In this document: positions 26,966 through 62,218 of the stretch, one piece after another | How the letters are laid out: each line of letters opens with the position of its first letter | Position numbering within the stretch: the stretch's first letter is position 1 | Assembly: GCA_965214705.1 (NCBI GenBank) | Contig: OZ243972.1 | Location: forward strand, 320,001-384,000 | Direction of reading: 5' to 3' | From: Alphaproteobacteria bacterium | GTDB taxonomy: Bacteria; Pseudomonadota; Alphaproteobacteria; UBA828 | Length of the DNA: 64,000 nucleotides | The notes under the pieces: generated by a model | Told to the model about the DNA's origin: nothing | The model's input: only the letters and a program-made list of their open reading frames with translations | The model's database searches: none | Position numbers and translations under genes: made by a program

Positions 26966-27214
26966 ATGTTCGAGAAGCACGCGAAGAAGGGCCGGCTGGT
27001 CTACGTCGCGGGCAAGATGCAGACCAGGAAGTGGCGCAAGGAGGGCGAGGACAGCGACCGGTTCTCGACCGAGATCCTGCTGGTGCCTGGTTCGCGCGTC
27101 CAGTTCTTGGATAAGCCTGCCGGCACCAACGGCAACGGTGCCCAGGCGCCCGACGGTGAGGCTGCGCCGGCCGGCGATGCCGCTACGGCAGGGACAGACG
27201 GCGTCCCGTTCTAG
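26966..27214 (+). pseudogene. ssb: 5'-truncated ssb
   Basis: KGRLVYVAGKMQTRKWRK...GVPF matches the C-terminal half of 21325-21792; the N-half is replaced by AT-rich sequence. Confidence 0.85.
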
Positions 27215-27257
27215 TTGCCCGTCCTCGCAGCGGGCGTCCTCAGCCCGCTCGCCCCAG

Positions 27258-27296
27258 AGCCCACCCCGCGTCCCTCCCGCGCGGGGTGGGCTTTTT
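27258..27296 (+). terminator. Rho-independent terminator
   Basis: 13-bp stem AGCCCACCCCGCG/CGCGGGGTGGGCT followed by a T tract, downstream of ssb. Confidence 0.7.
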
Positions 27297-27493
27297 CGTG
27301 CAGCCTGATCCGAGGCCACCGTAGGCCGGACGGCGGGGCTCGCGCTTCGCGCGCCGCCCGCCGTCCCGGCGCCGACGAGAGGCCGAGCGATGCCGGGACC
27401 GGGCACGTCCCATCCAGCGGCCAGCGAGGTCCCCATGCTCTCCATCTCCGGTCCCGGCTTCGCCGGTTCCCGTTCGATCCCGAAGGGCGCGCC

Positions 27494-28477
27494 ATGAACG
27501 CGGCCGCCGTCGCCGCAGCGCTCGCCGAGCGCGCTGAGGAGGTCTGCCGCCGATACCTGCCCTACGGGCGGCGCCGGGGCCGGTATTGGGTCGCAGGCGA
27601 CCTCGATGGCGGGCGCGGGCGATCCCTCTTCGTCCGCCTCGCGCCCCCCGGCACGCCCGGCAAGTTCACCGATGCGGCCACGGGGGAACATGGCGACCTG
27701 CTCGACATCGTCCGCCATCGCGTCAACGCGCCGACGCTGCGCGCGGCGCTCGACGAAGCGCGCTCCTTCCTCGCCCGGCCGGCTGCCCCGGCCGCAGGCT
27801 CGGGCGACGCCTATGACGCCACCGAGGCGGCCCGCCGTCTCTGGCAGCGCTGCCGCGCCATCGACGGCACCCATGCCGAGGCCTACCTCGAGGCGCGCGG
27901 TATTGAGCGCTGCCGCTTCGCGGCCCTGCGCTTCCATTCCGGCCTCTTCTACCGCGACGGCGGCGGCATGCGCCGCCTGCCCGCCCTGGTCGCCGCCGTA
28001 ACCGCTCACGACGGCGACATCGTCACCGGTGTCCATCGCACATGGTTGGACCCTCGGCGTCCCGCGAAGGCCAGCGTCTCGCGCCCGCGCAAGGCGCTCG
28101 GGCGCATTTTCGGCCATGCCGTCCGCTTCGGACGCCCCGCCGACGGCGCTTCGCTCCTCGTCGGCGAGGGCATCGAGACCGTGCTGTCGCTGGTGACGGC
28201 CGTTCCGACCATCACCGCCGCCGCTGCGCTCTCCGCCGGCAGCCTGGGTGCCTTCTCTCCGCCTGCCGGCACAGCCCGCCTCGTCATCGCCAGGGACAAC
28301 GACGATGAAGGCGAGCGCGCGGCTCTCCGCCTCGCCCAGCGCTGCGCGCGGGCGGGCATCGCCACCACGGTCATCTCGCCCAGGGGTGAAGATTTCAATG
28401 ACGACCTCCTCGCGTTCGGCCCCGCCGCGCTTGCCGCCTGGACGGCGGCCGCGCTCGCAGAACGGGAGCCCGGGTGA
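27494..28477 (+). CDS. Toprim-domain (primase-like) protein
   Basis: YWVAGDLDG, TDAATGEHGDLLD, GEGIETVLS, ARDNDDEG, DFNDDL. Confidence 0.85.
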   Translation: MNAAAVAAALAERAEEVCRRYLPYGRRRGRYWVAGDLDGGRGRSLFVRLAPPGTPGKFTDAATGEHGDLLDIVRHRVNAPTLRAALDEARSFLARPAAPAAGSGDAYDATEAARRLWQRCRAIDGTHAEAYLEARGIERCRFAALRFHSGLFYRDGGGMRRLPALVAAVTAHDGDIVTGVHRTWLDPRRPAKASVSRPRKALGRIFGHAVRFGRPADGASLLVGEGIETVLSLVTAVPTITAAAALSAGSLGAFSPPAGTARLVIARDNDDEGERAALRLAQRCARAGIATTVISPRGEDFNDDLLAFGPAALAAWTAAALAEREPG

Positions 28478-28554
28478 GGGCAGCCAACGGGCGAGCCGCA
28501 TGGAGAGCAGAGAAAGTCCTCTCCGCGCCGGCATCACGCTACGGGGGGAAGACC

Positions 28555-28782
28555 ATGAGCAGCGATATCAAGTTCCGGCGGGTGAGCGAGAACGAGGCCC
28601 GCGTCTATCAGGACGGCGACTACGTCGGCGACGTCTTCCGCCAGGACGACATCCTCAACCGCGGCGCGGTGTTCCATGTGGTGCATCTCAGCGAAGACCC
28701 CCGCGGGCCCGTCAGGGTGCACGAGCGCCATCGCGTCCGCGAGGTCGCCCGACACCTCCTCGACACCCACCCGATGCTGTGA
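28555..28782 (+). CDS. Small hypothetical protein (75 aa)
   Basis: Paralogue of 19512-19739 (YQDGD, RGPVR, HP). Confidence 0.75.
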   Translation: MSSDIKFRRVSENEARVYQDGDYVGDVFRQDDILNRGAVFHVVHLSEDPRGPVRVHERHRVREVARHLLDTHPML

Positions 28783-28908
28783 GCGGTGACGAGCGCCACC
28801 GGGAGCGGCTCGCCCTCGATCCCGTTGCCGGGCCCGCGGCCGGCACCGCGCATTTCATCGCTGCGGGAGGTGCCGCGCCGCTTGCGGGAAACAAAAACAA
28901 GGGGTCCG

Positions 28909-31129
28909 GTAGAGTAGGACGCGAGCGCCTGGTGATCCTCACGCACCACAGGTTTCTCGCGCCCTCTCTCAGAACCGGGCGTGCACCTTTCGTTATGCAC
29001 CCGGCTCGCCAAAGGCTTTCGTGAAGGCAGGAGTTTTCATCCAATTGAGCTTGAACTGCATGACCGGAATCCGGCCCATTTGGTACAGCTCAGTGTCGCC
29101 ATCGGCCCAGACCCGAGCGCCGGGATACTGCCGGCTCGGCCTCGACCAAGAAGCGTACACCCGTCGCGGGGAGGCGCCGTCGTGCTTACCCCGCATCCAC
29201 AGCCAGAGCCGTCGCCACACATACCAGTCCAGACTGGACAGGATGCGCTTGGCCCCGATGCAGTGGCGGTAGTAGTGGCCCCACCCCCGGAGGATTGGAT
29301 TGATTTCCTGGAGCACGCTTCTCAGCGAGCGCGTCCGCGTCCGCTGATTCAGCACTTGCTTGATCCGCCGGCAGAAGTCACTGATCGCCTCCTTCGGGAT
29401 TTCGACCCGGCACATGTAGCCGTCATGGTCGTCCCCTTTGAGACGAACCCGGCATCCGAGGAACCGGAATCCTTCCGTCAGTCTGGTGATCCGCGTCTTC
29501 TCCTCCGATAGCGTCAGCCCCATCTCCTCGCGCAGCCAGTCCGCGAGCGCCTGCTTCTCAGCAGCCGCATCGTCGTAACCGCCCGCCACGAAGATCAGGA
29601 AGTCGTCGGCATATCGGACCGGGTAGAAGACCGTTCGCCCGGCCTCCCTGTCCCGAAATCGCCGTGTCGCGGCCATCCGCCTTCCGTCAGTCCGGATATT
29701 GGGATCATGCGGGTGCCTCACCCACCACCAGTACCGCTCCTCGATCGCGCTCAGCGCGATGTTGGCCAGCAGGGGAGACAGGACACCCCCTTGAGGCGTG
29801 CCGGTGGTTGTCGGATTGTAGTTGACGTCCTCCAATACCCCGGCTTTGAGGAACCGCACGATCAGCCTGTTGACCTTCCGGTCCGCAACGGATTTCCGTA
29901 CGCGCTCCATCAGGTAGTGATGGCCGATGTTGTCGAAGCAGCCCTCGATGTCGCCTTCAATCACCCATTGATAGGGAGGGTCGCGAAGCTTCCCATCGGT
30001 TCTCGACTTGTGAGTCCGAGTGGTCAGCCGGATATGTTCGAGTGCGCCATGGCAGCCCCGTCCGGGCCTGAACCCGTAGGAGACCTGCCAGAAACGCGCC
30101 TCGAAAATTGGCTCCAGGATGTTCTTGACCGCGCATTGCACCACGCGGTCAGCAACGGTGGGGATACCAAGGGGTCGGAACTTCCCCGGCTTGCCCGGCT
30201 TCGGAATCCACTTCCGCCGGGCGGGCGACGGTCGGTAGCTGCCATCGCGCAGCGCCTCCCGAAGCTCGTCCAGAAAGAGCGGTACACCTCCATCGCCAGC
30301 GGCAATGCTCGCCACCGTCAGCCCGTCGACGCCCGGCGTTCGTCTGCCCTTGTTCTGGGCAATCGAGTGCCATGCACAGCGAAGATTGCGCGGATCGGTT
30401 ACCCAGTTCCACACATCGCCGTAAGCGCCTTCAGGCGTCTCCTTACTCCACCGATACAACTTCCGCTGCACGTTGAGGAGCCAGGCCATGTCGGCCTGAT
30501 TATCCGAGTCCACGGATAGTTCCTCCGTCAGTCGATAGCCGATCCACCTTCTGCCCCCCTTCGCCATGTATGCGGCTTTCCCGCACTCCGACTACTACGA
30601 GGGCTCCGCCCCCATGCGGCCCGTCTCCGTTCTCCGCGGCTAGCCCGGTTCCGTGCCGGGCGAACAGCATGGGTTCCTGTGTTCCGATGACAAACCTGAG
30701 ACCCTTAGGCGGCACGCTATACCCCTTGCAGCTCTGGGGTTCGGGATAGAAGGGTTGACCCGTACCCGGGTGCGTTCAACACACCCGCCAGTCGGCAGAC
30801 GGAAGACCAACCGGCTCTCACCGCGCTCCCTCCGCCCCGTCGGGCCATTGAGGGTTGGACATCTAAATAAAGAGGCTTCCGTCACGTGCTTCGTTCAACC
30901 TCGCCATAGGTCCTGTGGTAGCCCGGCCCGCGAGCGACGGCCCGCACCCGGTACAGTTCAGATCGCAGCTCTTTCGCCCCACCGTCGGAAACCGGCGGAG
31001 CTTAGCGATCCCCTTCCGCCCAACACCCCTCGTCAGGCAGGGTGGCGTTTCAGCCACCGGTCGATCATCAGCACTACCAAGTGTTTGGTTTACTTCATGC
31101 TTTCCTCCTACTTGGTATTCACAGCGCAC
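28909..31129 (-). mobile_element. Group II intron, apparently full length (2.2 kb)
   Basis: 5' GTGCG at 31129; domain V GAGCCGGGTGCATAACGAAAGGTGCACGCCCGGTTC after the ORF; 3' end CCTACTCTAC at 28909. Confidence 0.88.
28993..30513 (-). CDS. ltrA: Group II intron reverse transcriptase/maturase, no endonuclease domain
   Basis: RPLGIPTVADR, SYGFRP, PQGGVLSPLLANI, RYADD, FLG, LRGWGHYY. Confidence 0.93.
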   Translation of the reverse strand: MDSDNQADMAWLLNVQRKLYRWSKETPEGAYGDVWNWVTDPRNLRCAWHSIAQNKGRRTPGVDGLTVASIAAGDGGVPLFLDELREALRDGSYRPSPARRKWIPKPGKPGKFRPLGIPTVADRVVQCAVKNILEPIFEARFWQVSYGFRPGRGCHGALEHIRLTTRTHKSRTDGKLRDPPYQWVIEGDIEGCFDNIGHHYLMERVRKSVADRKVNRLIVRFLKAGVLEDVNYNPTTTGTPQGGVLSPLLANIALSAIEERYWWWVRHPHDPNIRTDGRRMAATRRFRDREAGRTVFYPVRYADDFLIFVAGGYDDAAAEKQALADWLREEMGLTLSEEKTRITRLTEGFRFLGCRVRLKGDDHDGYMCRVEIPKEAISDFCRRIKQVLNQRTRTRSLRSVLQEINPILRGWGHYYRHCIGAKRILSSLDWYVWRRLWLWMRGKHDGASPRRVYASWSRPSRQYPGARVWADGDTELYQMGRIPVMQFKLNWMKTPAFTKAFGEPGA

Positions 31130-31625
31130 TCCGTCGTGATGTCCGAGGATTTCACACGTGCTCGCGACAGCAACCCTGCGGGTCCTCCGGTCGCTCCGCT
31201 CCCTACGGCCTGACCCAAGGAAGTCTAAGGCGGGCCGTGAAGTTCGGCGACCGTGAAGATGGCTTGCGTGTAATTGCCAACCGCCTCGTCTTGCAGCGCG
31301 CCGGCCCCTGACGCGGGGCCGACGCGTCACGCTGCACCGCCTCAAATCCATTCGCGGAACCATTCGTCGCGGCGCCTAGACGCCGGGCAGGCCCAAGCGG
31401 GCCCGCCCGGCACGGCGCCGTAATGACCACTGGAATGGATTTGCTGCGGAGCACCGTTCCCACCGGCACGGCGGCGCCATCTTCCGCACCGACATCGCCG
31501 AACTTCCGCACCCAAACCCGCCCAAGACTTCCCAGGGCCAGGTGCTGCCGCTGCGCGCGCGTGAATCACAAAGGACATCACCACGGGGCACAGGGTCCCG
31601 GAGGTTGAACCAACAGGAGATCGTC

Positions 31626-32549
31626 ATGATCGACACGACCAGCGCTACCGCATCAGCTTCTTCCACTGCCACGGTCTGCGAGGGCATGGCCCTCTACGGC
31701 GCAGCGCCCGAGCGCGGCGAGCTCGACAGCCGCGTCGTCTGGGACGAAGACGACGCCATCGATGCGCTGAACGAAGCCATCCGCGTCATCGTCGACGGCA
31801 TCACCGTAGACGGCACGCAGATGGCCGACGAGCGCGAGCCCCTGATGTGGGGCCTGACCAACATGCTGCACAGCCAGGTCACACGCCTCGACCGCGCCGT
31901 CGACCGCATCACGCCCGAGATGCGCGACCTCGAGAAGGCGCAGGACGGATCGGAGGTGAAGGCATGGGAGCTGCAGACCATGACTGACAGGGCGCAGAAC
32001 CTCGGCGACAGGCGCGACGCCTTCGAGAAGCTCCGCGACCTCGCCGCCGACGCCTACCGCGTCGAGACCGGCGACACATGGCGCCCGAGGCACGGCTCGC
32101 ACACGAGCCAGACCGGACAGCTCACCTCCGCCGCCATCGACGCGCGCGACTTCCGCAGAGCTCGCAAGGACCGCGAGACGAGGGCGCACCTGCCCGAGGG
32201 CACCCTGGTCGCGATCACCGGCGGCAAGACCGTCGCCGATGCCGACGCGGTCTGGAGCACGCTCGACATGGCGCGCGCAAAGTACGGCGACATGGTGCTG
32301 CTACATGGTGGCGGTCCCGGCGTCGAGAAGATCGCCGCGAGCTGGGCAGAAGCGAGAGGCGTCAACCAGGTCATCTGCCGCCCGGACTGGAATGCGCACG
32401 GCAAGGCCGCGCCCTTCCGCCGCAACGACGAGCTGCTGAACTTCCTGCCCAAGGGCGTCATCGCCTTCCCCGGCAGCGGCATCACCGGCAACCTCGTCGA
32501 CAAAGCTCGGCAGCTCGGCATACCGGTTATGCAGATAAAGGCCGCGTAA
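31626..32549 (+). CDS. DUF2493 (SLOG/YspA-like) domain protein
   Basis: Paralogue of 18056-18982; LLHGGGPG, AAPFRRND. Confidence 0.85.
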   Translation: MIDTTSATASASSTATVCEGMALYGAAPERGELDSRVVWDEDDAIDALNEAIRVIVDGITVDGTQMADEREPLMWGLTNMLHSQVTRLDRAVDRITPEMRDLEKAQDGSEVKAWELQTMTDRAQNLGDRRDAFEKLRDLAADAYRVETGDTWRPRHGSHTSQTGQLTSAAIDARDFRRARKDRETRAHLPEGTLVAITGGKTVADADAVWSTLDMARAKYGDMVLLHGGGPGVEKIAASWAEARGVNQVICRPDWNAHGKAAPFRRNDELLNFLPKGVIAFPGSGITGNLVDKARQLGIPVMQIKAA

Positions 32550-39811: not shown

Positions 39812-40464
39812 TCAGGGAGAAAGGATTGCTTCGAAGGCGTCCTCGCGCTGGAGCGCGAAGTGCCGGGTTGCCGAGGCGACGCTGTCGAAGTCGGTCTTGT
39901 GGATGATGAGCGCGATCGCGATGTTGGTGCAGAGCGCGTTGTTCTCGGGCGCGAACCCGGTGCGCGCGAGGCAGGCGTCCTCGGCGAAGAGCTTGTCCCT
40001 GACGTGGTGGTTGACCTCGACGGACCAGTGGCCGCGGTTCCAGGCGAGAAGGTCCTGTGGCGAGGCGCGCTCTGCCGGCACCGAGGTGATGCCGTAGGCG
40101 TGCTCGATGCTGGTCTCGCCTGTGCCGTTGCGCCGTGCGTCGGTGCGCTTGCGGGTGACGCGGAACATCTGCGCGACATGAGGGTAGTTGATCAGGCCTG
40201 GAAGCGGGGTCAGGGTCTCGATGCGGCGTTGCTCGATGCGGCCATGGGCCTTGGCGACATCTTCCTCGAAGTGTCCGCTCGCGTCGCGCTCCCAGTCGAT
40301 GGAGGCGAGGGTCTCGCAGGTCTCGGGCGCGTTTTCCTTGACCGTCATGAGATAGTCGGCGCCGTGGGTTTCCTTGATGGTGCGCGCGGTGTCGCGGGTG
40401 GTGTCGCGGGTGGTGTCGCGGGTGGTGTCGCGGGTGGTGTCGCGGGTGGTGTCGCGGGTGGTGT
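39812..40464 (-). pseudogene. ISAs1 transposase, C-terminal part
   Basis: ADYLMTVKEN, AHGRIEQR, RGHWSVE, RD..FAED; continues ...IDALHTTR from 62341. Confidence 0.85.
40393..40464. repeat. Tandem repeat (CGCGGGTGGTGT)x6 at the left junction of element A
   Basis: Six perfect 12-bp units, in frame with the ISAs1 transposase (TTRD repeats). Confidence 0.95.
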
Positions 40465-40880
40465 GCACTAAATAACGCTATTGCTTAGTGCACGGGGGCT
40501 GACGCAGGGTTGCAGTTTCCTCCTTTATTAAAGTTATACTACAAAAGGTTATGTCTCAAGTCAAGGGTGATTGGAGCGGGGACGTAGGACACATTGGCTG
40601 ATCCTGTGTCTCTCGGCAGTTGCATTCAGGGGAGCCGGCAAGTGGAATTCGTCGTGGAGTAGTGATCTGGTGGCTGTTGCGGGATCGGATCATTCGGTCA
40701 GGACACAAGTATGGCACAGGTTCTTGTGTGCGAGGAATGTCATAGGAGTTTCGTGATCTATTCTACATGCAGGGGTAGCCCCGTGTCCCGGTTGCAGCAG
40801 GTTCCTACGGGCGGCTGGGCCGCGATGAGGGAGGATACCGGCGGACGCCGCCAGCGCGCGATCATGGCCACCGATGCCGA

Positions 40881-41234
40881 GTGGGAGCGGAGTGCGAGAC
40901 AATCCCGCCGCTACCGTGGACTAATTTCTCACCGCCGTTCACACTGTCGCGCCTGCTGAACGGCAAGGCGGGCGTATCGGCGAACATGGCCTTGGCGCTG
41001 GAGGATATCGGCTGGGGAACCGCCGAGCACTGGATGCGGATGCAGGCGAGCTACGAGCTTGCACAGGCGCGCCGCAACCGAGCCGTTGTCGAACGCCGCG
41101 CTGGCGCGCTTCAAGCTTGCCCGAGCGTCGTGCCAGCACTGCCGGACAGGGAGTTGTCCCGCATGCCGCCGGTCATCCGCTTCCTGACAACGGCAGGCTG
41201 CGACACGCCGCGCACCACGCGCGGCGCCGCCTGA
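40881..41234 (+). pseudogene. HigA-like (XRE HTH) antitoxin fragment
   Basis: TLSRLLNGKAGVSANMALALE...WMRMQASYELAQAR; N-terminus and toxin absent. Confidence 0.7.
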
Positions 41235-41426
41235 TGCGCCTGTCGTGGAACGAGGTCCGCCCGAAATCTTGGTGAGCAATTTCCGGACCTTCGAGCTTCA
41301 CGATCTTGACTCGCGCATGGACGCAGCGATGATCGCGTCCACCTTTTTCGCCGCTTAGACGACATGCGCATCGGCAAGGTGAGCATAGCTCGCCATCGTC
41401 CGGTGCTGCCTTAGGAGACAGCCAGA

Positions 41427-42209
41427 ATGCCGATTTACGAGAAAACCGTCAAGGAGCTGATGCACGAGTTCGCGGCCCAGGAATTGGGGCCAGGGAAGGT
41501 CTTCTCTCGTAAAGATGCGATTCGCTGGTTTGCCGAGCACTATCCGAGAATCAAGAGCAACACCGTCGGGTTGCATGTGGACGGCATGTCGGTGAACAAT
41601 TTTACTCAACGTCGGCACAGCCCCCAGATAAAGCCGGACAAGGACTGGGACCTGTTCTACAAGGAGGGCCCGCGCGAATTTCGCTTATGGGATCGCGAGA
41701 ACGATCCAGACCCCCGCTACAAGACCGATCTTGATGCAGATATTGGAGGAAGCGTTGCCAGGGCGGACGATATTGCCGGAGAGACCTCTGAGGAAGACGA
41801 CCCCGGTTCGCGCAAGTTCGCGTTCGAGCGGGACCTTCAGAACTATCTCGTGCAAAATCTCGGACTTTTGGAACCCGGCCTGAAGCTCTACGAAGACGAG
41901 GACGGAGAATTCACCGGCGTCGAGTTTCCCGCAGGCCAGCGCCGCATAGACATTCTCGCGGTCGGTGGCGACAGCGCCTACGTGGTGATCGAGACCAAGG
42001 TGTCCCGCGCCTACGACCGAGTCGTAGGTCAGGTTCTCCGGTATATGGGCTGGATTAAGGAAAACCTCGCTGGCGATGCGCCGGTCAGGGGCGTTATCGT
42101 CGCCAGCGAGATTTCGGAGGACCTCATTCTGGCAACTTCCTCCGTCGAGAACATTAGGCTCGTTGAGTACGAAATTTCTTTCTCCCTTAAATCCGTTTTC
42201 GGGCAATGA
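41427..42209 (+). CDS. NucS-like PD-(D/E)XK endonuclease domain protein with N-terminal HTH-like domain
   Basis: ERDLQNYL, RIDILA, VVIETK, VGQVLRYMGW. Confidence 0.85.
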   Translation: MPIYEKTVKELMHEFAAQELGPGKVFSRKDAIRWFAEHYPRIKSNTVGLHVDGMSVNNFTQRRHSPQIKPDKDWDLFYKEGPREFRLWDRENDPDPRYKTDLDADIGGSVARADDIAGETSEEDDPGSRKFAFERDLQNYLVQNLGLLEPGLKLYEDEDGEFTGVEFPAGQRRIDILAVGGDSAYVVIETKVSRAYDRVVGQVLRYMGWIKENLAGDAPVRGVIVASEISEDLILATSSVENIRLVEYEISFSLKSVFGQ

Positions 42210-42289
42210 CCCGGCATGCCGGTATGTGGTGAAGACGGTCATCAACTGGTTCGCCAGCGCACAAACGCACGCCGGAACTGACGTTCAGA

Positions 42290-42400
42290 GCATCGGCACC
42301 GATTCCCATGGCTGCTGCGATAAAGCCTCCCACTTTCTCCGCCGCCGCGACCAAGTGCGCATCGTCAAGATGGGCGTAGCCTGCCGTGGTCCGGTGTCTC
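42290..42400 (-). pseudogene. C-terminal fragment of a third tyrosine recombinase
   Basis: RHRTTAGYAHLDDAHLVAAAEKVG parallels the MTLRYAH...EAAAERVG tail of the neighbouring integrases. Confidence 0.6.
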
Positions 42401-42441
42401 TCCGCCCTTGACAGTCTTGGGCGCAGACAGACAGCTCCGTC

Positions 42442-42549
42442 ATTTCCGGGGCGTAACCGCCCCGGCCTCATTGAGGCCACCGTGAGCGTGTGAAGCAGAC
42501 CTTCCGCGCGGCGATTTCCGGGGCGTCACCGCCCCGGCCTCATTGAAGC
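42442..42549 (+). CRISPR. Orphan mini-array: two 36-bp type I-G (I-U)-like repeats and one 36-bp spacer
   Basis: ATTTCCGGGGCGT(A/C)ACCGCCCCGGCCTCATTGA(G/A)GC at 42442-42477 and 42514-42549; internal hairpin CCGGGGCG/CGCCCCGG; ATTGAAGC end. Confidence 0.8.
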
Positions 42550-43562
42550 GCGTTGCCGATCCGGGTACGAGCGCGTCGAGTCAGTGGGACGAACTGGCCT
42601 CATTGCCACCGATAGCCCGCGCGATGGCCGCGCCGACGCGTTCTGCCGCCGCCTCGATCTCCCAGTCCCCGACATGGGCGTATCGTAGCGTCATGCTCGG
42701 GCGCTTGTGGCCGAGCAGGCGGGAGACGACCGGCAGCGGGATGCCCCGCAGCACGGCATGGCTGGCAAACGTATGACGAAGGTCATGCAGGCGCACGTCC
42801 TCGATCCCCGCTTCCCCGCGCACCGAGTACCAGAGCCTCAGATCGCACGAGAACGGCCGCCCGGGGTTCGACGGCGAGGGGAAGACATACGCGCACCCGG
42901 ATCGTGGTTGCCGTTCCAGGATGGCGCGGGCCGGCGCGTTCAGGAAGACCCGTCTCGGCCCGGTCTTGGTGTCGCTCAAATTGAGCGTGTCCTCGTCCAC
43001 ATCCTGCCAGCGAAGGGTCCGGATCTCGCTCTTCCGGCAGCCGGTCAGTAAGAGAAGGCGGATGATGTCCGCCTGTCGAGCGTGTGAGGCCCGCGCGTCG
43101 GCGTAGCGGTCCAGCACGCGGTGAAGGCGGCGGATCTCCTCGCGCGACAGAAAACGAGTGAGTTTCGGGCGGGGGTTGCGCTTGATGCCACGCGCCGGGT
43201 TCGTCTGGAGATGGCCGTAACCGGCCGCATGGTTCAGGATCTGGCGAAGCAGGCTCAGCGCGCGATTGGCCCCGCCGGGCGCGGACCGGCTATACTCGTC
43301 GAACCAGCGGGTCACGCCGGCCCGGGTGATCCGGTCCAGGGGCAACGCCCCGAACGCTGGAAGCAAGTGTGCTCTCAGGATCCAGGCTGCGGTCTTTGCC
43401 GTGAAACAGATTCCGGCGAGGCACGCGTGGTGACGGTCCAACCCGCGAGTTGTGCGGAGTTGGCTGAGATCGCCGGCGTCGGCGCGGCAGTGACGAGCGG
43501 TGGACTTCCCCGATGTGGCCCGAAGCCGGTCCCGCGTAGCCGACAGGCGTGATGCAGGCTGC

Positions 43563-44813
43563 TCAGGCGACCTTGAGTTCCGCGTCCACGGGCTCGATGT
43601 AGCCGTAGCGGCGGAGCATGCGGATCCACCGAGGGGCGTTGCGCTTGACCATCAGCGCGTCGTAGTCGGCCGTGCGGTCGTAGTAGGGCCTGCCGGTCTT
43701 GAGGACGACATAGATGATGCGCAGCATCTTGTGTGCGCCGGCGACGATGGCGCGCTTGTAGCCGCGCCGGGCGGCGAGGGCGCGGTGGTGAGCCTCGAAC
43801 TGGCACCCCTTGGTTCGGGCCGCGCCGTGGGCACACTCGACGAGGCAGGCGCGCAGGGTCTTGGAACCCATGCGGGTGCGCGCGTTGCGGCGCTTGCCGC
43901 CACTTTCGTTGTTGCCGGGGCAGAGGCCGGCCCAGGCGGCGAAGTGCTCCTTGGAGGCGAACGCCTCGATATCGGGGCCGATCTCGATCAGGATCGTGGA
44001 CGCGGCGATGCGGTCGATGCCGGGGATGGTGGTCAGCAGGCGGAGCTGCTCCTCCCACGGGGTCATCTGCCCGTCGATCTTCTTGGTGTAGGACGCGATG
44101 CGCGCCTCGAGTGCGTCGTGCTCCTCCAGAAGATCGTTGAGCATGAAGCGATCGTTGTCGCCCAGGCTCAGGGAGAGCGCCTCGCCGAGCCCCTCCAGCT
44201 TGTTCGCGACGTGGCGGGTGAGGGAGGCGAGGATGACCTCCCGCTCCGTGCCTTGAGCCAGGCCGTCGAGGATCTTGCGGCCGTTGACGCCGAAGACATC
44301 GGAGATGATGCCGCCGATGCGCGCACCGGCACGGTCGATGATCTTCTGCACACGGTTGCGAACGGTGGAGCGCTGCCTGACCAGGACGCGGCGCTGGCGG
44401 CTCAGAGCGCGCAGCTCCCGGAACGGCTCAGGCGGAACATGGGACGGCGTGCAGAGCCCGAACTGGCACACACAGGCCAGCCACACGCTGTCGGCCACAT
44501 CGGTCTTGCGCCCCTTCAACTGCTTCACCTGGCGCGCGTGCACCAGGATCGCCTCGATCCCGGCCGCCTCCAGGGCCGCGAAGGGCGCCTGCCAGTAGAC
44601 CCCGGTCCCCTCCATGACCGCAGCCTCGACGCCGTGAGCGGTCAGCCATGCGACCATCTCCTCCAGACCGCTCGGCAGCGTGCTGAAGCAGCGCGTCTCC
44701 ACCACCGGCTCGCCCTCGCCCTCGCAGAGGCGAACCGTCGCGGTGATCTCCATCTTGTGCACGTCCAGACCCGCCGCGCGCGGCCGGACGACGTGCAAGC
44801 CTTCCGTCTTCAT
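43563..44813 (-). CDS. IS110-family recombinase/transposase
   Basis: DEDD motifs GLDVHK, MEGTG, KTDVAD; ESGGK catalytic-serine motif. Confidence 0.93.
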   Translation of the reverse strand: MKTEGLHVVRPRAAGLDVHKMEITATVRLCEGEGEPVVETRCFSTLPSGLEEMVAWLTAHGVEAAVMEGTGVYWQAPFAALEAAGIEAILVHARQVKQLKGRKTDVADSVWLACVCQFGLCTPSHVPPEPFRELRALSRQRRVLVRQRSTVRNRVQKIIDRAGARIGGIISDVFGVNGRKILDGLAQGTEREVILASLTRHVANKLEGLGEALSLSLGDNDRFMLNDLLEEHDALEARIASYTKKIDGQMTPWEEQLRLLTTIPGIDRIAASTILIEIGPDIEAFASKEHFAAWAGLCPGNNESGGKRRNARTRMGSKTLRACLVECAHGAARTKGCQFEAHHRALAARRGYKRAIVAGAHKMLRIIYVVLKTGRPYYDRTADYDALMVKRNAPRWIRMLRRYGYIEPVDAELKVA

Positions 44814-44878
44814 CGCCTTCCTCCTCATTTGCGCTCTCGCCACGGCGGCGTACGATCACGCCGTGGCATCGCCACGGT

Positions 44879-45055
44879 GGAGGCGGGGACAGCGGTCGGA
44901 AGGACACGCATCCGCCGAGCGGGTGCGGTTCGATTTGCCGCGCGTCCACGGCCAAAGGCCGGGTACAATACGGGGTGCGGAGCCGACCGCCGGAAGCAGT
45001 TTTGTCATCGGGAACTACGTCACCGATATAACGACGCTCACACGTCCCCGCCTCC
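44879..45055 (-). ncRNA. Candidate IS110 bridge RNA
   Basis: Non-coding end upstream of the recombinase, closed by a 12-bp stem (GGAGGCGGGGAC/GTCCCCGCCTCC); contains short matches to target and donor junction sequences. Confidence 0.55.
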
Positions 45056-45869
45056 GCCAACACCCATCCTGACACGGCAGAACCAGTGCAGGCGTGAGAA
45101 AAACGTCAGCCCAAGCGCCCCTGTTTCATGCCACGGGGTGGCTCAGAACCGCGGGGACCATGACTGTTTTGTGTCGATGGTTTGCATCTGTCGAGACGCG
45201 CCCGCGCCGGACCTGCGGCGAATTCCGCGAAGGTCGGGACAGTTCCTCTTCTCGGCCTGCCGGACCGCGCTTCGGTCTCGACGGCGAGGCACTTGGCGCG
45301 CGCCTCCTCGACCCTCATCAACGCGGCAGACCCGAGCGTGATCCTGCGCGCGCCGCCCTCGCCCTTCCGGCAATAGACATAGCTCCGGTGCCCCGACGAC
45401 CGAACCCGCACGCCGAGACCGGTCTGGCGCGTGTCCCAGACGGTGTGCACTACCTAAAGCGAACTGTTCGCGAACGAACCGTGACGCAGGGTTGCTCTTT
45501 CCTCCTGTATATGACTGACGCTACAGTGAGTTAGGATTCTTGTCAAGGGCGGATTGGGCGGAGATGGAGAACACATTGGCAAATCTTGTGTCTCTCAGGA
45601 GTTGCACGCGGGGAAGTGGGTTGTGGATATTGACGTAGAGCGCTGGTATGGCTTTTATCATGAATTGGGGGCTCTGCGAGGACACAATGGCGGCATATAC
45701 TATCGCTCACGAGGAATGCCATAGGATTTTGGTGACATATTCCTCGTCCTCACGAAGCCACGTGTCCCGGTTGCAGCAGGTCCCTACGGGCGGCTCGCCA
45801 CCATGAGGGAGGATGCCAGTGGGCGCCGCCAGCGCGCGGTCATGGCGACCGATGCGGAGTGGGAGCGGA

Positions 45870-46070
45870 GTGCGTCAGGCGAACTGGTGCGAGTGCAGTT
45901 GGTGAAAGTCTAACAGGAAGGAGAAGGTGAGCCACCACTTCCACCCCGAGTCATGGGCCGTTGTTCGCGAGGGCGAGGGTCAAGCGTTGACAGGGGCGCG
46001 TGTGGGCGGGGCTATTGAGCACCGAAAGAAAAACATCATCCGGGATGCCGAGGCTCTTTGCCGTGAAAAT
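45870..46070 (+). mobile_element. 5' fragment of a group II intron
   Basis: GTGCG start followed by domain-I-like GGTGAAAGTC...CCCCGAGTCATG...AAGCGTTGACAGGGG...TATTGAGC; no RT or domain V follows. Confidence 0.55.
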
Positions 46071-46579
46071 GCCCTCGGGTTCGGCACAAACACTCCCGCG
46101 CGACGCCGGTGTGCTGCTCCGGGGTCGCCGGGTATCCGCGACGAACGGTGCTCCTCTTATGAGGACTGCGACCGGTAGGCTACCCCGATGTGGTCCGAAG
46201 TCCGTCCGCGCGACGGGCACCGATTTTCATTCTACGGGGTGGTCCAGCACGGCGTCGACCATGATCGTTTCTTGACGGTGTAGGGGACGGTCAGCTTCCG
46301 TCCGCAGCGGCGGACTCGCCGTCCAGGCGGAGTGACGGGAGATTGTCGCGTGCGCGTGATGTGAGCCGAAGCCGTCGCGGCGCTTGAGCGACGAGCGACT
46401 CCCGTTCCCGACCGTGCACGCCTTGCTTCGTGATGTTCGAGGCGTTGCCTTCTCCGGAGCCATCTCGATAATGCCGGTCTTCAACGTTGCGCACGATCAC
46501 GGCACGGACGGCTTGCCGCCGCGATTGGTGTCGTGGCGGCCATGACGGCGATTTCTCCTGGAGCATCCGACGCTAAACC

Positions 46580-55670: not shown

Positions 55671-56831
55671 TCAACAGTCTACGTTGACCCCACTGCAATC
55701 CAATGCGGACGCAATTGCCGCACCGATGCGTTCCGCCGCCGCCTCGGTCTCACGGTCGCCGACGTGAGCGTAGCGCAGCGTCATGCTTGGGCGCTTGTGG
55801 CCGAGCAGGCGCGAGACGACGGGCAAGGGGATGCCTTGCATCACGGCGTGGCTGGCGAACGTGTGTCGCAAGTCGTGAAGGCGCACGTCTTCGATTCCGA
55901 TTTCCCTGCGCACTAGGTACCAGAGCGGCAGGTGGGACGACAGCGGCCGCGTCGGATCGAACGGCGAGGGAAAGACATACGCGCTTCCGGTTCGCAGCTG
56001 CCGCTCCAGGATGGCGCGCGCGGGCGCATTCAGGACGACCCGCCGCGGCCCGGACTTGGCATCCGCGAGATTGAGCGCGTCCCCGTCGATGTCCTGCCGA
56101 CGCATGGTCACGATCTCGTTCTTGCGGCAGCCGGTCAGCAGGAGAAGGCGGATGATGTCCGCCTGCCGTGCGCGCGACGGCCGCGCGCCGGCATGGTGGT
56201 CCAGCGCGCGGTGAAGGCGCTGGATCTCCTCGCGCGAGAGGAAGCGGGTTAGCTTCGGGCGCGGATTCCGCTTCACGCAGCTGGCCGGGTTCGTGTCGAG
56301 ATGCCCGCACGCGACGGCCTGGTTCAGTATCCGGCGGAGCAGGCCCAACGCCTGGTTGGCCCCGCCCGGCGCGGTCCGGCTGTACTCGCCGAACCAGCGG
56401 TGCACATTCGCGGGGGCGATCCGGTCCAGCGGCGACGGGCCGAAGGCCGGAAGCAAGTGCCTCCGCAAGACCCAGTTCGCTCTCTTCCGCGCCGAAGGCT
56501 TGAGATTGTCGAGCCGCGCCTTCACCGGACCTGCGACGAAATCCCCGAACGTCGGCACCGCTCCCCGTTCCGGCCGCCCGGACCGTGCTGCGGTCTCCAG
56601 GGTGAGGCACTTGGCGCGCGCTTCCTCGACGCCCATCAGGGCCGCAGGCGCGAGGGTCATCCTGCGCGCGCCGCCCTCGCCCTTCCGGCAATAGACGTAG
56701 CTGCGGTGTCCCGAGGGCCGGACCCGCACGCCGAGGCCGGCATGGCGGGTGTCCCAGACCGTGTACTCGCGCGCCGCCGGCGTCAGCCAAGCCACGTTGG
56801 CGTCGGTCAGACGCTTCCTCTTCCCGGCCAT
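55671..56831 (-). CDS. intB of element B: intact tyrosine recombinase with arm-binding-type N-terminus
   Basis: TVWD...GLGVRV; LTGCRKNE, K, HDLRH, LGH, LRY. Confidence 0.92.
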   Translation of the reverse strand: MAGKRKRLTDANVAWLTPAAREYTVWDTRHAGLGVRVRPSGHRSYVYCRKGEGGARRMTLAPAALMGVEEARAKCLTLETAARSGRPERGAVPTFGDFVAGPVKARLDNLKPSARKRANWVLRRHLLPAFGPSPLDRIAPANVHRWFGEYSRTAPGGANQALGLLRRILNQAVACGHLDTNPASCVKRNPRPKLTRFLSREEIQRLHRALDHHAGARPSRARQADIIRLLLLTGCRKNEIVTMRRQDIDGDALNLADAKSGPRRVVLNAPARAILERQLRTGSAYVFPSPFDPTRPLSSHLPLWYLVRREIGIEDVRLHDLRHTFASHAVMQGIPLPVVSRLLGHKRPSMTLRYAHVGDRETEAAAERIGAAIASALDCSGVNVDC

Positions 56832-57051
56832 GCGTCAGCCCTCAAGGACAGCGCCGACGGCCTCGGCCGCCTCGCGCACCATGGCGTCGGACAAATGCAA
56901 GTATTTCAGCGTCGTTGCCGGATCGCGGTGCCCGAGAAGACAGCCGATGGTCAGCACCGTCGTAAGCGGTATCGAGGCCCCATACTTCCAACGCATCTGA
57001 TTTCGCGGCTGACTCTTGGCCTTGGCAAGGAGCCTTGGAGGAGGCATCGCG

Positions 57052-57654
57052 ATGAAGGATTTGGATTTTCTGCGTGGCCACGAGTTCGGCGGTCACTCGG
57101 TCGAGGCGCGAGCGCCTGAAGAGGCCGCCCCATCTGCCGCAGCCCCATCTACGGCAACTGTTCCGGCTGATCACACTCGGCGGTCATGGTCCGCCGAGGA
57201 GAAGGCACGGATCGTCGCGGAGAGCGACAGGCCGGGAGTTGTGCAGAAGGAGGTCGCGGCTCGCCACGGCATCAGCGCACAAACTCTTCGTCAGTGGCGC
57301 AGTCGGTCAGCGGCTTCCGGGAAGCGGCGTGGCCGGCCTTGGCCGGCTGATGTGAAGGCGCGGATTGTTGCGGAGAGCGAGCGCCCGGATGCATCGATAT
57401 CGGCAGTTGCCCGCCGTCACGGCATCAGCGAGAAGACGCTGCGCACCTGGCGTCGCCAGGCGGCGAGTGACGCTGGTGGCGATCGGCAGGGAGCCGGGTC
57501 TTCGCCCCCCTATATTCCGGTTGTAGTTGACGGGTCTGCGTCCGAGCGGACGGTCGCGATTGAGGCGCTGGGCGTCGTCGTTCGCCTTCCGGTGGAGAGC
57601 GCGGTCGATCGGATCGTGGCTGTGGCCTCGGGCCTGGGTCGTGCGTCGTCATGA
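57052..57654 (+). CDS. tnpA: IS66 TnpA with a duplicated HTH domain
   Basis: Two KARIVAES...VA.RHGIS..TLR.WR units. Confidence 0.85.
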   Translation: MKDLDFLRGHEFGGHSVEARAPEEAAPSAAAPSTATVPADHTRRSWSAEEKARIVAESDRPGVVQKEVAARHGISAQTLRQWRSRSAASGKRRGRPWPADVKARIVAESERPDASISAVARRHGISEKTLRTWRRQAASDAGGDRQGAGSSPPYIPVVVDGSASERTVAIEALGVVVRLPVESAVDRIVAVASGLGRASS

Positions 57655-58001
57655 TCGCGGTGCCCTCGCTTCGCATCGTGTTGGCGACGCGTCCGGTTGA
57701 TTTTCGTCGCGGCCACGACGCGCTTGCGGCGACGGCGGCGAGGGAGCTGGACCTCGATATCTATTCCGGGGTGATCGTGATCTTCCGCTCGCGCCGCGGG
57801 GACAGGCTCAAGCTTCTCACCTGGGACGGGACCGGTCTGGTGATGACCTACAAGCGTCTGGAGCAAGGCCGCTTCGCCTGGCCCCGGATCGAGGACGGTG
57901 TGATTCGCCTTACGAAGGGCCAGTTCGAGGCTCTCTTCGAGGGCCTCGACTGGCGCCGGGTGAAGGCCCGCCCGGTTCGCCGCCCGCTGGCGGCGGAGTG
58001 A
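57651..58001 (+). CDS. tnpB: IS66 accessory protein TnpB
   Basis: PVDFRRG, DRLKLLTWDGTG, KRLEQGRF. Confidence 0.92.
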   Translation: MIAVPSLRIVLATRPVDFRRGHDALAATAARELDLDIYSGVIVIFRSRRGDRLKLLTWDGTGLVMTYKRLEQGRFAWPRIEDGVIRLTKGQFEALFEGLDWRRVKARPVRRPLAAE

Positions 58002-58094
58002 GGCGAGACGCAGGCGGGTCCGCAGATTTTTGTCGAGGTCCCGCCTGCACTTTTCCCTGGTCACGCATTGGCGAATCGGATTAAGGGATCGGCC

Positions 58095-59810
58095 ATGCCG
58101 AAGGTCACGCCCTCACCCCTCAGCAGCGCCGGTTCGCCGTCGCCTGCGGTGGTTTCGGCGGCGCTGGCGACCCTGCAGGCGGAGCTTGCCGAGGAGCGCG
58201 CGGCGCGCCGTGCGACCGAAGCAGCCCTATGCGAAGCGGAGCAGGCACGCGGCGCGGCGGAGGCGGCGAGGCAGACGGCGGAAGCGCGGGCGGCACGGCT
58301 GGAGGCCGAGAACGCGCACAGCGCGGAGCAGATCAGCCGGCTTGAGCATCTCAACAAGGAGCTCAGGAAGGCGCTGTTCGGTCCGCGCTCCGAGAAGCTC
58401 AACGAGGACGAGCGCCAGCTTACGTTCGAGGAGTTTTGGGCGGCGATCGCTGAAGCCGGCGGTCGGCCCGAGGCAGATGACCAGGAGCAGGACGAGGGGG
58501 CTGGCGGCAAGCGCCGGCGGCGCTCTTCCCGGGGGTCGCGCAGCGGGGTGCGCTTCGGGCCCCAGGTCGACCGGCGCGAGGAGGTGATCGAGCCGGACAC
58601 GATCATGTGCCCCTGCGGCTGCGGCGAGATGACGAAGATCGGCGAGGACCGCAGCGAGCGGCTGGACTATGAGCCGGCGAAGTTCACCGTCATCGAGACC
58701 GTGCGCCCCCGCTACGCCTGCAACAAGTGCAAGGGCGGCGGGGTGGTGCAGGCGTCGGCGCCCGCCTCTCTGGTGGAGGGCGGCCTTCCCACCGAGGCTC
58801 TTCTGGCGCAGGTGCTGATCGCGAAGTACGGCGATCATTGCCCGCTCTACCGTCAGTCGCAGATTTACGAGCGCTCGGGGATCGAGGTTCACCGTGCGAC
58901 GCTGGCGACGTGGGTGGGGCAGGCGTCGTTTCACCTGCGCCCCGTGGTCGCTTGCCTGAAGGATGAGCTGAAGAAGTCGGATCACCTGGGTCTGGACGAG
59001 ACCACGATCCGCGTTCTCGACCCGGGCCGGGGCAAGACGAAGACGGGCTACATGTGGACCCTTGTGCGCGACGAGCGCCACTGGAGCGGCGCCGACCCGC
59101 CGGGCGTTGTCTATCGCTATGAGCCCGGTCGCGGCGGCAAGTATGGCGCCAGGCTCTTGAAGGGCTTTTCGGGGACGGTGCAGCTCGACGCCTACTCGGG
59201 CCACAACATCCTGGCGCGGCCGGACCGGCCCGGCGGCCCCGTGACGCGGGCTCTGTGCTGGGCGCACGTCAGGCGCAAGCTGAAAGAGGTGTACGACTCG
59301 AGCGCCTCGCCGATCGCGCTGGCTGGCCTGAAGCGGATCGCGACGCTCTATGCGATCGAGGAGAAGATCCGGGGCGAGCCGCCGGCGACGCGTCAGGCGA
59401 TCCGCTGGGAGGAGTCGGCGCCGATCGTGAACGCCTTCGGTGTCTGGCTCGACGAACAGCGCTCGCGGGTCTCACCGCGCTCGCGTCTCGGCGAGAAGCT
59501 CACCTATATCGCCAACCAGTGGGACGGGCTGCTGGAGTTCCTGCACGACGGCCGCGTCGAGATCGACTCGAACCTGGTGGAAAACCGAATCCGCCCGCTG
59601 AAGCTCACCGCCAAGAATGCGCTCTTCGCCGGCAACGACGAGGGTGCGCAAGCCTGGGCCCGCATCGCATCGCTGATCGAGACCTGCAAGATGAACGGCG
59701 TCGAGCCTTACGCCTGGATGCGGAGCACGCTCGAGAAGATCGCCAAGGGTCACCCGCAGTCCAAAATCCAGGAACTGCTGCCGTGGAACTTCGAGCCCGA
59801 GACAAATTGA
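58095..59810 (+). CDS. tnpC: IS66 transposase TnpC
   Basis: FGPRSEK, PLYRQ, DETT, DAYSG, CWAHVRRK, IDSNLVENRIR, ELLPWN. Confidence 0.93.
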   Translation: MPKVTPSPLSSAGSPSPAVVSAALATLQAELAEERAARRATEAALCEAEQARGAAEAARQTAEARAARLEAENAHSAEQISRLEHLNKELRKALFGPRSEKLNEDERQLTFEEFWAAIAEAGGRPEADDQEQDEGAGGKRRRRSSRGSRSGVRFGPQVDRREEVIEPDTIMCPCGCGEMTKIGEDRSERLDYEPAKFTVIETVRPRYACNKCKGGGVVQASAPASLVEGGLPTEALLAQVLIAKYGDHCPLYRQSQIYERSGIEVHRATLATWVGQASFHLRPVVACLKDELKKSDHLGLDETTIRVLDPGRGKTKTGYMWTLVRDERHWSGADPPGVVYRYEPGRGGKYGARLLKGFSGTVQLDAYSGHNILARPDRPGGPVTRALCWAHVRRKLKEVYDSSASPIALAGLKRIATLYAIEEKIRGEPPATRQAIRWEESAPIVNAFGVWLDEQRSRVSPRSRLGEKLTYIANQWDGLLEFLHDGRVEIDSNLVENRIRPLKLTAKNALFAGNDEGAQAWARIASLIETCKMNGVEPYAWMRSTLEKIAKGHPQSKIQELLPWNFEPETN

Positions 59811-61093
59811 CTCGCGCGCTCACGGCGCTCCTCAACAAGTCCCCCTCGTAGTCAACCCAGATTCCGGCATGGGGTCTGCGTAACGCTTACGCACCGTCTC
59901 GCCCCGCACCAGGGCCGTGCTGGCGTACGTATGTCGAAGGTCGTGAAGGCGGACGTCGCACAGGTCCGCTTCCGCCCTCACGCGATGCCAAGACTTGCCG
60001 ACACCGACCGTGTGCAGGAAGCCGTCGGACCGCGGCGAGGGGAAGACCCAGACGGACGTGCGGGGCAGGCCGTCGAGGATTGCGCGCGCGGCGGACGAGA
60101 GCCAGACCGTGCGCGGACCGGTCTTGGAATCGGGCAGGAACAGCTTGCCCTCGCGGTAGAAAGACCACTTCAGGGTGACGATCTCGCTCTTGCGGCATCC
60201 GGTGAGCAGCAGCAGGCGAATGATCGCCACGGCCAGCGGCCGGTCGGCCTCGTGGCGTGCCAGCACGGCGCCCAGCCGGCGCATCTCCGCGGCCGACAGG
60301 AAGCGCTCCCGCCCCTGGCGGCGGTACCGCCTGATGCCCGCGCACGGGTTGGTCCCCTCGGTCCGGTAGCCGTAGACCTCGGCTTGGCGCATGATGACCG
60401 AGAGGACTGGGGCCGAGCGGTCCGCCGCCACCGGGGTCACGTGGAGGGAGGCGAACCAGCGCTGGACGTCGTGCGCGGTGATGTCGGCGATCGGGCGCCC
60501 TTCGAAGCAGGGCAAAATCTGGTTGCGGTAGTAGTAGCGGTTGACCTTGAGCGTCGATGGTTTCCAGTTTCGGGCATAGCGGTGGAAGACTTCATCGGCG
60601 ACCGTCTCGAACGGGATGTCCGGCGCCGCTGTGGCATCGCCGCCGTTGCCCTTGCGGACCGAGGCCACCAGGGTCCTGGCCCGGTCGCGGGCCTCGTCGG
60701 CGCCGATGGCCCCGGCCTGGCCGACGATCTTCCAGACCCGCCGGCCCTGGTGCTGGGTATGGACGAAGTAGCGTTTGGCGCCCGAGGGAAGGACCCTGAC
60801 GCCGAAGCCCTTGAGATCGCGGTCGCGCACGTCGTAGGCGGACTTGCGGGGCTTGAGCGCGTCGACGCGGTGTTCGTTGAGGCGAACCGTCGCCATGAAA
60901 CTCCTCCTGCGTTCTGTTGCAGCCGGGGAAGAACGCGGACCGATTCCGCGTCTTCCGGGCTTGACAGGAGGAAAAAAGCAACGCTATGTCAGTGCATTAG
61001 AACCGAAGGTGCGCCAGACGGTGTACTCGCGGGCCATCGGCGCCAGCCGGGCCACGTTGGCGTCGGTCAGACGCCGCCTCTTCACGGCCATGC

Positions 61094-62218
61094 CTAGCCC
61101 TCCAGGACGGCGCCGACGGTATCGACGGCCTCGAGCACTGTGAGGTCGGACATGTGTGTGTATTTCAGCGTCGTTGCCGGATCGCGGTGTCCGAGAAGAC
61201 GGCCGATCGTGAGCACCGTCTCACCCTGCGCGAGTGCCATGCTGGCGTACGAATGCCGCAGATCGTGAAGGCGGACGTCGCGCAGATCCGCTTCCGTTCT
61301 CACGCGACACCAGACCGCGCCGACTGCCCTTGCGCTCAGGAAGCCACCTGTTCTTGGCGAGGGGAAAACCCAGGCGGCTTCGCGGGGCAAGCCGTCCAGG
61401 ATTGCGCGCGCGGCGGACGACAGCCAGACCGTGCGCGGCCCGGACTTGCTGTCGGGCAGGAACAGCTTCCCCTCGCGGTAGAAGCGCCATTTCAGGGAGA
61501 TGACCTCGCCCTTGCGGCAGCCGGTCAGCAGCAGCAGGCGTATGATCGCCATGGCCTGAGGGCAGGCGGCTTCATGGCGTGCCAGCACATCGCCCAGACG
61601 GCGGAGTTCGGCGGTCGACAGGAAGCGCTCCCGCCCCTGGCGGCGGTATCGCCTGATGCCCGCGCACGGGTTGCTTCCCTCGGGCCGGTAGCCGTAGATC
61701 TCGGCCTGGCGCATGATGACGGACAGGACGGGAGCCGAGCGGTCCGCCGCCACCGGGGTCTCGTGAAGGGATGCGAACCAGTGCCGGACATCGCGGGCGG
61801 CGATGCCGGCGATCGGGCGTCCCTTGAACCAGGGCAGAATCTGGTTCCGGTAGTAGCCCTGGTTGACCTTGAGCGTCGACGGCTTCCAGTTCCGAGCGTA
61901 GCGCCGGAACACTTCGTCGCCGACCGTCTCGAACGGAGTGTCCGGCGGTGCTGCGGCTTCGTCGTCGTTGCCCTTGCGGATGGAGGCCACCAGGGTTCTG
62001 GCCCGTTCGCGGGCCTCGTCAACGCTGACGGAGCCGGCGCGGCCGACGATCTTCCAGACCCGCCGACCGTCGTGCTGAGCATGTACGAAGTAGCGCTTGG
62101 CGCCCGAGGGCAGGACCCTGACGCCGAAGCCCTTGAGATCGCGGTCACGGACATCGTAGGCGGCCTTGCGGGGCTTGAGCGCGTTGACACGGCGTTGGTT
62201 GAGGCGAACTCTTGCCAC
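61094..62218 (-). CDS. intA of element A: intact tyrosine recombinase with arm-binding-type N-terminus
   Basis: GTG after GGAGG; GFGVRV, LTGCRKGE, DSKSG, HDLRH, LGH, LKY. Confidence 0.92.
   Translation of the reverse strand: MARVRLNQRRVNALKPRKAAYDVRDRDLKGFGVRVLPSGAKRYFVHAQHDGRRVWKIVGRAGSVSVDEARERARTLVASIRKGNDDEAAAPPDTPFETVGDEVFRRYARNWKPSTLKVNQGYYRNQILPWFKGRPIAGIAARDVRHWFASLHETPVAADRSAPVLSVIMRQAEIYGYRPEGSNPCAGIRRYRRQGRERFLSTAELRRLGDVLARHEAACPQAMAIIRLLLLTGCRKGEVISLKWRFYREGKLFLPDSKSGPRTVWLSSAARAILDGLPREAAWVFPSPRTGGFLSARAVGAVWCRVRTEADLRDVRLHDLRHSYASMALAQGETVLTIGRLLGHRDPATTLKYTHMSDLTVLEAVDTVGAVLEG

Follow-up and report, generated by a model that had tools for sequence, protein, structure and literature searches.

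A one-spacer CRISPR mini-array of the type I-G repeat family beside an interrupted integrase gene: perhaps the remnant of a longer array

Two near-identical 36-nt sequences lie 36 nt apart beside an integrase gene in the 64-kb stretch of alphaproteobacterial DNA analysed here (the window, with coordinates counted from its first nucleotide), raising the question of whether they form a genuine CRISPR array and, if so, whether that array is at work, serves some other purpose of the mobile DNA around it, or is merely left over. The whole unit occupies 42442-42549 on the + strand as repeat, spacer and repeat (36/36/36 nt), and the stop codon of the integrase (42581-42583, minus strand) follows 31 nt past the end of the second repeat; both the layout and the adjacency to the integrase are thus as an earlier note, made from the sequence alone, had described them. 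That note holds as regards two repeats of type I-G-like character, the orphan state of the array and its place next to the integrase, but not as regards the relic of a third repeat that it proposed. The features to which we refer are these:

40779-41234: HigA-like gene
41427-42209, + strand: gene for a DUF7669 and NucS-like nuclease protein, a candidate defence gene (Pfam; NCBIfam NucS; PADLOC PDC-S02, E 1.4e-27)
42408-42413, + strand: TTGACA, a hexamer weakly resembling a -35 box, 34-29 nt ahead of repeat 1
42442-42477, + strand: repeat 1, the degenerate copy, 36 nt, with ATTGAGGC as its 8-nt handle
42470-42541, + strand: predicted mature crRNA, 72 nt (a handle of 8 nt, the whole spacer, then 28 nt from repeat 2 that include the hairpin)
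42478-42513, + strand: the single spacer, 36 nt
42514-42549, + strand: repeat 2, the canonical copy, 36 nt, with the consensus handle ATTGAAGC
42581-43441, minus strand: C-terminal piece of a P4-type tyrosine integrase (Pfam Phage_integrase and Phage_int_M), convergent with the array
43563-44843, minus strand: IS110-family transposase gene (Pfam; NCBIfam transpos_IS110, E 3.9e-81), which splits the integrase
45175-45447, minus strand: N-terminal piece of the integrase (tblastn: residues 23-113 of a paralog, 78%)

Each repeat is built of 4 nt, an 8-bp GC stem with a 4-nt loop, another 4 nt and an 8-nt tail. The two copies are identical at 34 of 36 positions, one mismatch falling in the hairpin loop and the other in the last 8 nt (ATTGAGGC vs ATTGAAGC), and both stems are perfect; RNA hairpins form in both repeats according to fold prediction, and the predicted fold of the 131-nt array stretch beats 200 of 200 shuffles (z = -3.69). 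Besides these two, no further copy at up to 3 mismatches occurs in the 64-kb window (nor did any of 100 shuffles contain a match), and no additional degenerate repeats rise above background on either side of the array. The generic description of a CRISPR array, as at least two direct repeats, each 23-55 nt long, with unique spacers of like length between them, therefore applies to this unit, at the minimum possible size.

The supposed third repeat, GGCCTCATTG at 42596-42605, is an exact 10-mer shared with the repeat, but its distance from the copy within repeat 2 is 60 nt, where a period of 72 would be expected. Over the 36 nt that surround it, 16/36 positions agree with the repeat, and 19/36 or more are reached by 23% of random 250-nt windows. 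It falls within the last 8 codons of the integrase, and an intact integrase paralog at 55671-56831 (77% protein identity to the split integrase) carries 7 of the 10 bases at the equivalent spot. Because this paralog and the piece at 42581-43441 align as DNA up to a common stop codon, the 10-mer is native integrase coding sequence; with the wrong period, the sub-background frame match and the paralogy of the integrases, we rejected the relic. The homology of the two integrase loci reaches exactly to the stop codon and no farther, and no array lies behind the paralog.

The repeat belongs to an established family. Searched with the Rfam model CRISPR-DR16 (RF01330), repeat 2 scores 39.0 bits on the + strand, over the gathering score of 35, and repeat 1 scores 29.9 bits, under it. 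When the array region was compared with PLSDB by blastn, a single record was returned, a plasmid of Candidatus Methylocalor cossyra with 31 matching places, in which a stretch of 21 repeats has the same 3' half as the repeats of the window together with a compensatory change in the stem. Scanned against species-representative genomes, a 19-nt pattern made from the 3' half of the repeat, which is conserved, yielded at least 123 loci from many phyla, many of them with tens to hundreds of repeats, and flanking DNA was taken from 80 of these loci (labelled L plus a number where we refer to one). Among the matches listed, the closest repeats are those of L061, a real array that differs from repeat 2 at 2 positions, and of L106 and L121, which are 3 positions off.

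Around 11 loci with arrays of this family, 57 flanking ORFs were scanned against NCBIfam: type I-G effector genes (Cas3g, Cas8g/Csx17, Csb1, Csb2) were present in seven of these loci, a Cas4g/Cas1g fusion in ten, and type III modules (Cmr or Csm) in three. The link between the repeat family and type I-G cas genes thus comes from other genomes and not from that of the window, but together with the CRISPR-DR16 match it makes "type I-G-like", as the repeat had been called, a sound label. Since the upstream cas genes of those other loci lie on the same strand as the repeat as written, the array of the window reads on the + strand, and any leader would lie to the left of 42442. According to the structural account of type I-G in PMC9638904, repeats are 36 nt long and Csb2 cuts them 4 nt beyond the hairpin, which gives a 5' handle of 8 nt, a rule that the predicted geometry of the window's repeats fits exactly. 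The unit is, then, a genuine CRISPR array, though of the smallest kind, and its repeats are of the type I-G family. It shares with the arrays of RF01330 the 36-nt repeat, the GC hairpin, the 4-nt linker, the 8-nt ATTGAAGC-type handle, the 36-nt spacer and the orientation, but differs from them in having two repeats only, a first repeat below the Rfam threshold, and neither cas genes within 64 kb nor a leader motif, the two elements that a complete type I-G locus has in cis and upstream.

The absence of cas genes from the window, on which the name "orphan" rested, is borne out twice: a Pfam scan of 40 ORFs of the 64-kb window revealed no Cas families, and tblastn of 24 type I-G Cas proteins from the fetched loci against the window revealed no cas remnants (best E 0.08). 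To describe the leader we surveyed the 90 nt upstream of 56 real arrays among the matches listed and derived from them a motif, CGCTCG[C/A]AA, that is a product of this analysis and not of the literature. Situated about 53 nt ahead of the first repeat, it is present as the strict pattern in 37/56 of these listed leaders, and its core TCG[C/A]A can be read by eye in about 50/56. Neither strand of 41900-42700 contains the motif, and no listed leader resembles the DNA upstream of the window's array, blastn matches starting just 6-8 nt ahead of repeat 1. The motif keeps a fixed distance to the repeats in most listed arrays of the family (L002-L121), across many phyla, and may be a leader recognition site of the Cas4g/Cas1g integrase; the portions of PMC10274657 at hand do not mention it.

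Signals for transcription are mixed. TTGACA stands at the position that -35 boxes (followed by TATAGT) occupy in several real leaders, and transcription is therefore possible, but the -10 of the window is poor, a promoter scan near the array gave 0 sites, and no intrinsic terminator was detected near the array by scan. Given a transcript and Csb2, cleavage 4 nt past each hairpin would, by the rule of PMC9638904 and the predicted fold, release one crRNA of 72 nt (42470-42541), and its handle would be atypical. In a census of 2792 repeats from 77 real arrays among the matches listed, 2453 ended in ATTGAAGC, 297 in ATTGAAGG and none in ATTGAGGC. Variant ends, again among the matches listed, occur at the last repeat in 24 cases vs four at the first; the odd copy of the window is the upstream repeat 1, from which the sole crRNA would take its handle. 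Repeats inside real arrays are mostly uniform among the matches listed, whereas the two of the window differ. However, in the type I-G structure as presented in PMC9638904, Cas7.1 alone touches the handle, and the change therefore need not disable the RNA.

The search for spacer targets that the earlier note had in view returned none: the spacer is unique in the window (longest partial match 11 nt, which is chance level), and it found no convincing target in PLSDB (best E 0.3-1) or in phage records (best E 0.1), and nothing in the at least 123 fetched loci. The best plasmid match, in a Rhodococcus replication gene, has 7 mismatches over 32 aligned positions, only one of them at a third codon position, and was set aside as chance-level. 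Conversely, when 2901 spacers from the fetched arrays were searched against the window, the best match (21/22 nt, in the relaxase gene) was not significant after correction for 2901 queries. A missing target is weak evidence, because the searched databases hold few elements from environmental Alphaproteobacteria of this kind.

The neighbourhood of the array is rich in mobile DNA and badly decayed. Positioned on the 3' side of the P4-type integrase, the array lies among IS, toxin-antitoxin and defence-type genes: the DUF7669/NucS-like gene sits between the HigA-like gene and the mini-array and stops 232 nt ahead of repeat 1, and the window is crowded with IS66, IS1595, IS4-like and IS91 genes, parts of group II introns and three more integrase paralogs. 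It also includes a conjugative relaxase, 29 kb from the array; megablast of 40500-46500 against plasmids gave no match. We considered a direct repeat of about 300 nt (40600-40896 and 45579-45874) as the att sites of an island and rejected it, as it is a paralogous segment upstream of a HigA-like gene. Its right copy (45579-45874) is interrupted by a group II intron, of which an RNA domain is recognizable at 45905-46134 (Rfam group-II-D1D4-6, 87.8 bits), and an ORF for a group II intron reverse transcriptase/maturase lies at 28993-30567, 16 kb from that domain. The window's P4-type integrase genes form a set of four paralogs (55671-62239 plus 42581-45447), with a C-terminal integrase fragment (56837-56961) directly upstream of one and an integrase N-terminal-like stretch (61008-61093) directly downstream of another; paralogs and fragments together suggest that related islands piled up serially at one site.

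One other locus among the matches listed repeats the layout of an integrase followed by a mini-array. Locus L027, from Psychromarinibacter sediminicola, consists at 8236-10036 of a tRNA-Tyr gene, a P4-type integrase, 201 nt and a two-repeat type I-G mini-array, which lies on the opposite strand and points at the integrase, so that the two are convergent. Its first repeat scores 39.6 bits with CRISPR-DR16 (good) and its second 29.9 bits (degenerate). Both arrays, that of the window and that of L027, turn their trailer side to the integrase, and the two integrases have only their family in common. Since the tRNA target is on the 5' side of the L027 integrase and no repeat of the tRNA end follows that integrase up to the end of the contig, the array of L027 lies inside the island. 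Upstream of this mini-array there is a leader-like motif, and the contig ends 634 nt further on.

Beyond these two cases, integrases are rare beside arrays of the family. We built a profile from seven integrases, a narrow one, and ran it on the ORFs of 122 loci, 66 of them longer than 6 kb; among the matches listed it found integrases only in L027 and L070, and by this narrow profile no long-array locus among those 66 listed loci had one within 5 kb of the array. Proximity to an integrase is therefore no general trait of arrays of this family, with the caveat that two cases make a small sample. L070 has its array 5 kb from two integrases and from a relaxase fragment related to the relaxase of the window, and is, with L001 and the Methylocalor plasmid, one of the arrays of the family on or near mobile DNA. 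Solitary CRISPR-DR16 repeats occur in L047 (9984-10019, 45.5 bits) and L077 (9986-10019, 39.8 bits), both above the Rfam threshold and each the sole repeat within 20 kb; that of L047 lies between a RES/Xre toxin-antitoxin pair and mnmE. L037 has a single degenerate repeat (1341-1359) just upstream of a type I-G csb1 (Cas_GSU0053) gene at 1513-2739; possibly this repeat is a cr-like regulator located within a cas locus. An alphaproteobacterial locus, L019, is the best match to the window among the loci listed: its segment at 5469-9027 is related to the TrwC relaxase region of the window (72% identity along 3.6 kb; 72-81% over the genes of the region), and about 1 kb upstream of that segment comes a 21-nt match to the 3' half of the repeat (10001-10021) that ends in ATTGAGGC; we dropped it as a sister case, the covariance model calling no repeat there at E up to 0.05. 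Together with weak plasmid matches at 65-67% identity, L019 points to a probable alphaproteobacterial source of the window.

What, then, is the array of the window? The reading we prefer, to which we give about an even chance, is that a longer array, part of the cargo of an integrative island, collapsed into this leaderless remnant; that the remnant is inert or nearly so is likewise about an even call. We infer collapse and present inactivity from the missing cas genes and leader motif, the handle ATTGAGGC that occurs 0 times among the 2792 listed repeats, the difference between the two repeats, the lack of a target and the integrase split by an IS. A longer array would once have travelled as cargo of the island; recombination between repeats, with loss of the cas and leader side, would have left two repeats and one spacer, after which the repeats would have drifted while the island decayed too and its integrase was split by IS110. 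Such a mini-array could acquire no spacers, and any activity would have to come about in trans and would require transcription, Csb2 from the host and an effector of type I-G or of a linked type III system. The unit may in this way represent one step of a collapse series that runs from long arrays over two repeats, as in L027, to the solitary repeats of L047 and L077. Set against the remnant are the two intact hairpins and fully canonical repeat 2, the TTGACA in the place of a real -35 box, and a handle change that need not be disabling, while the integrase and convergent two-repeat layout shared with L027 hint that this arrangement is maybe kept for a reason.

The intact hairpins, the canonical repeat 2 and the TTGACA would also speak for a live, island-borne mini-array with its own promoter, which host Csb2 would process into a crRNA for host type I-G or type III effectors, directed against a competing element. 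Its position as island cargo beside defence-type genes (the PDC-S02-like nuclease and HigA) and the independent parallel in L027 point the same way, and viral mini-arrays with 1-2 spacers against related elements are established, as reported in PMC11656645. We nevertheless regard this as unlikely, though deserving of attention, in view of a spacer with no target in any of the sets searched, a handle base unseen in the listed repeats, the poor -10 and empty promoter scan, and an island whose integrase is dead. Somewhat bolder, and doubtful in our estimation, is the idea that two-repeat type I-G mini-arrays are a recurrent, selected cargo of tRNA-type islands, kept behind the integrase and pointing into it, where they would either borrow host type I-G/III effectors against rival islands or plasmids or damp the integrase by antisense read-through. 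It is improbable, too, that the repeats act as a decoy in the manner of an RNA anti-CRISPR, tying up the Csb2 and Cas7 of a recipient and so shielding the island during transfer. Repeat mimicry by mobile elements is established, supplementary file 3 of PMC10651486 includes two I-G-labelled solitary repeats with the same ...CTCATTGAAGC end, the window has a conjugative relaxase, and a crRNA with a mutant handle could conceivably form unproductive complexes; but the known Racrs, as that source presents them, are solitary repeats right after a promoter, and here there are two repeats around a spacer of normal length, no clear promoter, and a relaxase 29 kb away from an array in an IS-ridden stretch.

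Two further explanations turn on the integrase next door. The array could be host DNA at the boundary of the island, either because the island integrated next to a chromosomal type I-G array, or within one, or because imprecise excision carried off an array end from a former host, and it does abut the 3' end of the integrase with its trailer side, as in L027, at the very point where homology to the paralogous integrase ends, which is what either a boundary or variable cargo would produce. We think this improbable: the L027 array lies inside its island, the integrases of the window have the same domain architecture, what lies left of the array is again mobile and defence DNA with no core genes, and the 10-mer in the end of the integrase is due to paralogy and not to recombination in the repeat. 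Least of all do we expect a regulatory element, whether a crRNA-like RNA repressing a gene by partial complementarity or antisense read-through into the integrase. Array and integrase converge with just 31 nt and no terminator between them, and cas loci are known to contain regulatory mini-arrays whose repeats are degenerate (described in bioRxiv 10.1101/2023.03.03.530964); such elements, however, are in or beside cas loci, of which the window has none, partial matches of the spacer in the window reach at most 11 nt, and the integrase is already inactivated. The functional ideas of the earlier note (borrowing of host Cas, regulation, RNA anti-CRISPR) are all weakened by the missing leader motif, the unseen handle, the lack of a target and the decayed surroundings.

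Viruses and other mobile elements that carry mini-CRISPR arrays were reportedly described by Medvedeva et al. 2019. Orphan arrays as such are commonplace, and the papers found on their association with integrases or genomic islands are mostly routine genome surveys; orphan arrays and mini-arrays on mobile DNA, mostly viral, are known already. The array of the window resembles the viral mini-arrays of PMC11656645 in its one spacer, two repeats, lack of cas genes and probable location on mobile DNA, but those, as that source portrays them, have repeats identical to the host's and spacers that match related elements, whereas here the repeats differ and no target was found. With Racrs it shares the mimicry of a CRISPR repeat on mobile DNA and the handle end of the I-G-labelled examples, and it departs from them, as characterized in PMC10651486, in being a repeat-spacer-repeat unit with 0 sites in the promoter scan and not a single repeat right behind a promoter. 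It is unlike a CreA-type regulatory mini-array in having no cas locus and spacer matches of at most 11 nt. The nearest analogue is the Francisella type V-A remnant reported in bioRxiv 10.1101/2023.03.03.530964, with one or two degenerate repeats where cas genes and array are gone, although loss was demonstrated there by genomes with and without the locus.

For practical purposes, this genome should not be credited with a working CRISPR system on account of the locus; as a type I-G example in a probable genomic island, it is one data point on the movement and decay of arrays. Taken with L027, it is a modest but testable clue that one-spacer arrays may be retained by islands beside the integrase, and its spacer could be used as a marker to trace past hosts of the island.

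Two other features of the window deserve mention. Some eight tandem copies of a 12-nt unit lie at 40363-40464, within an ORF for a transposase fragment. Farther from the array, 18074-21585 and 26975-32528 are long inverted duplications of one another (76-84% identity) that contain genes with YAcAr/SLOG, Toprim/DUF7146 and SSB domains, and they are two related segments of conjugative elements placed face to face.
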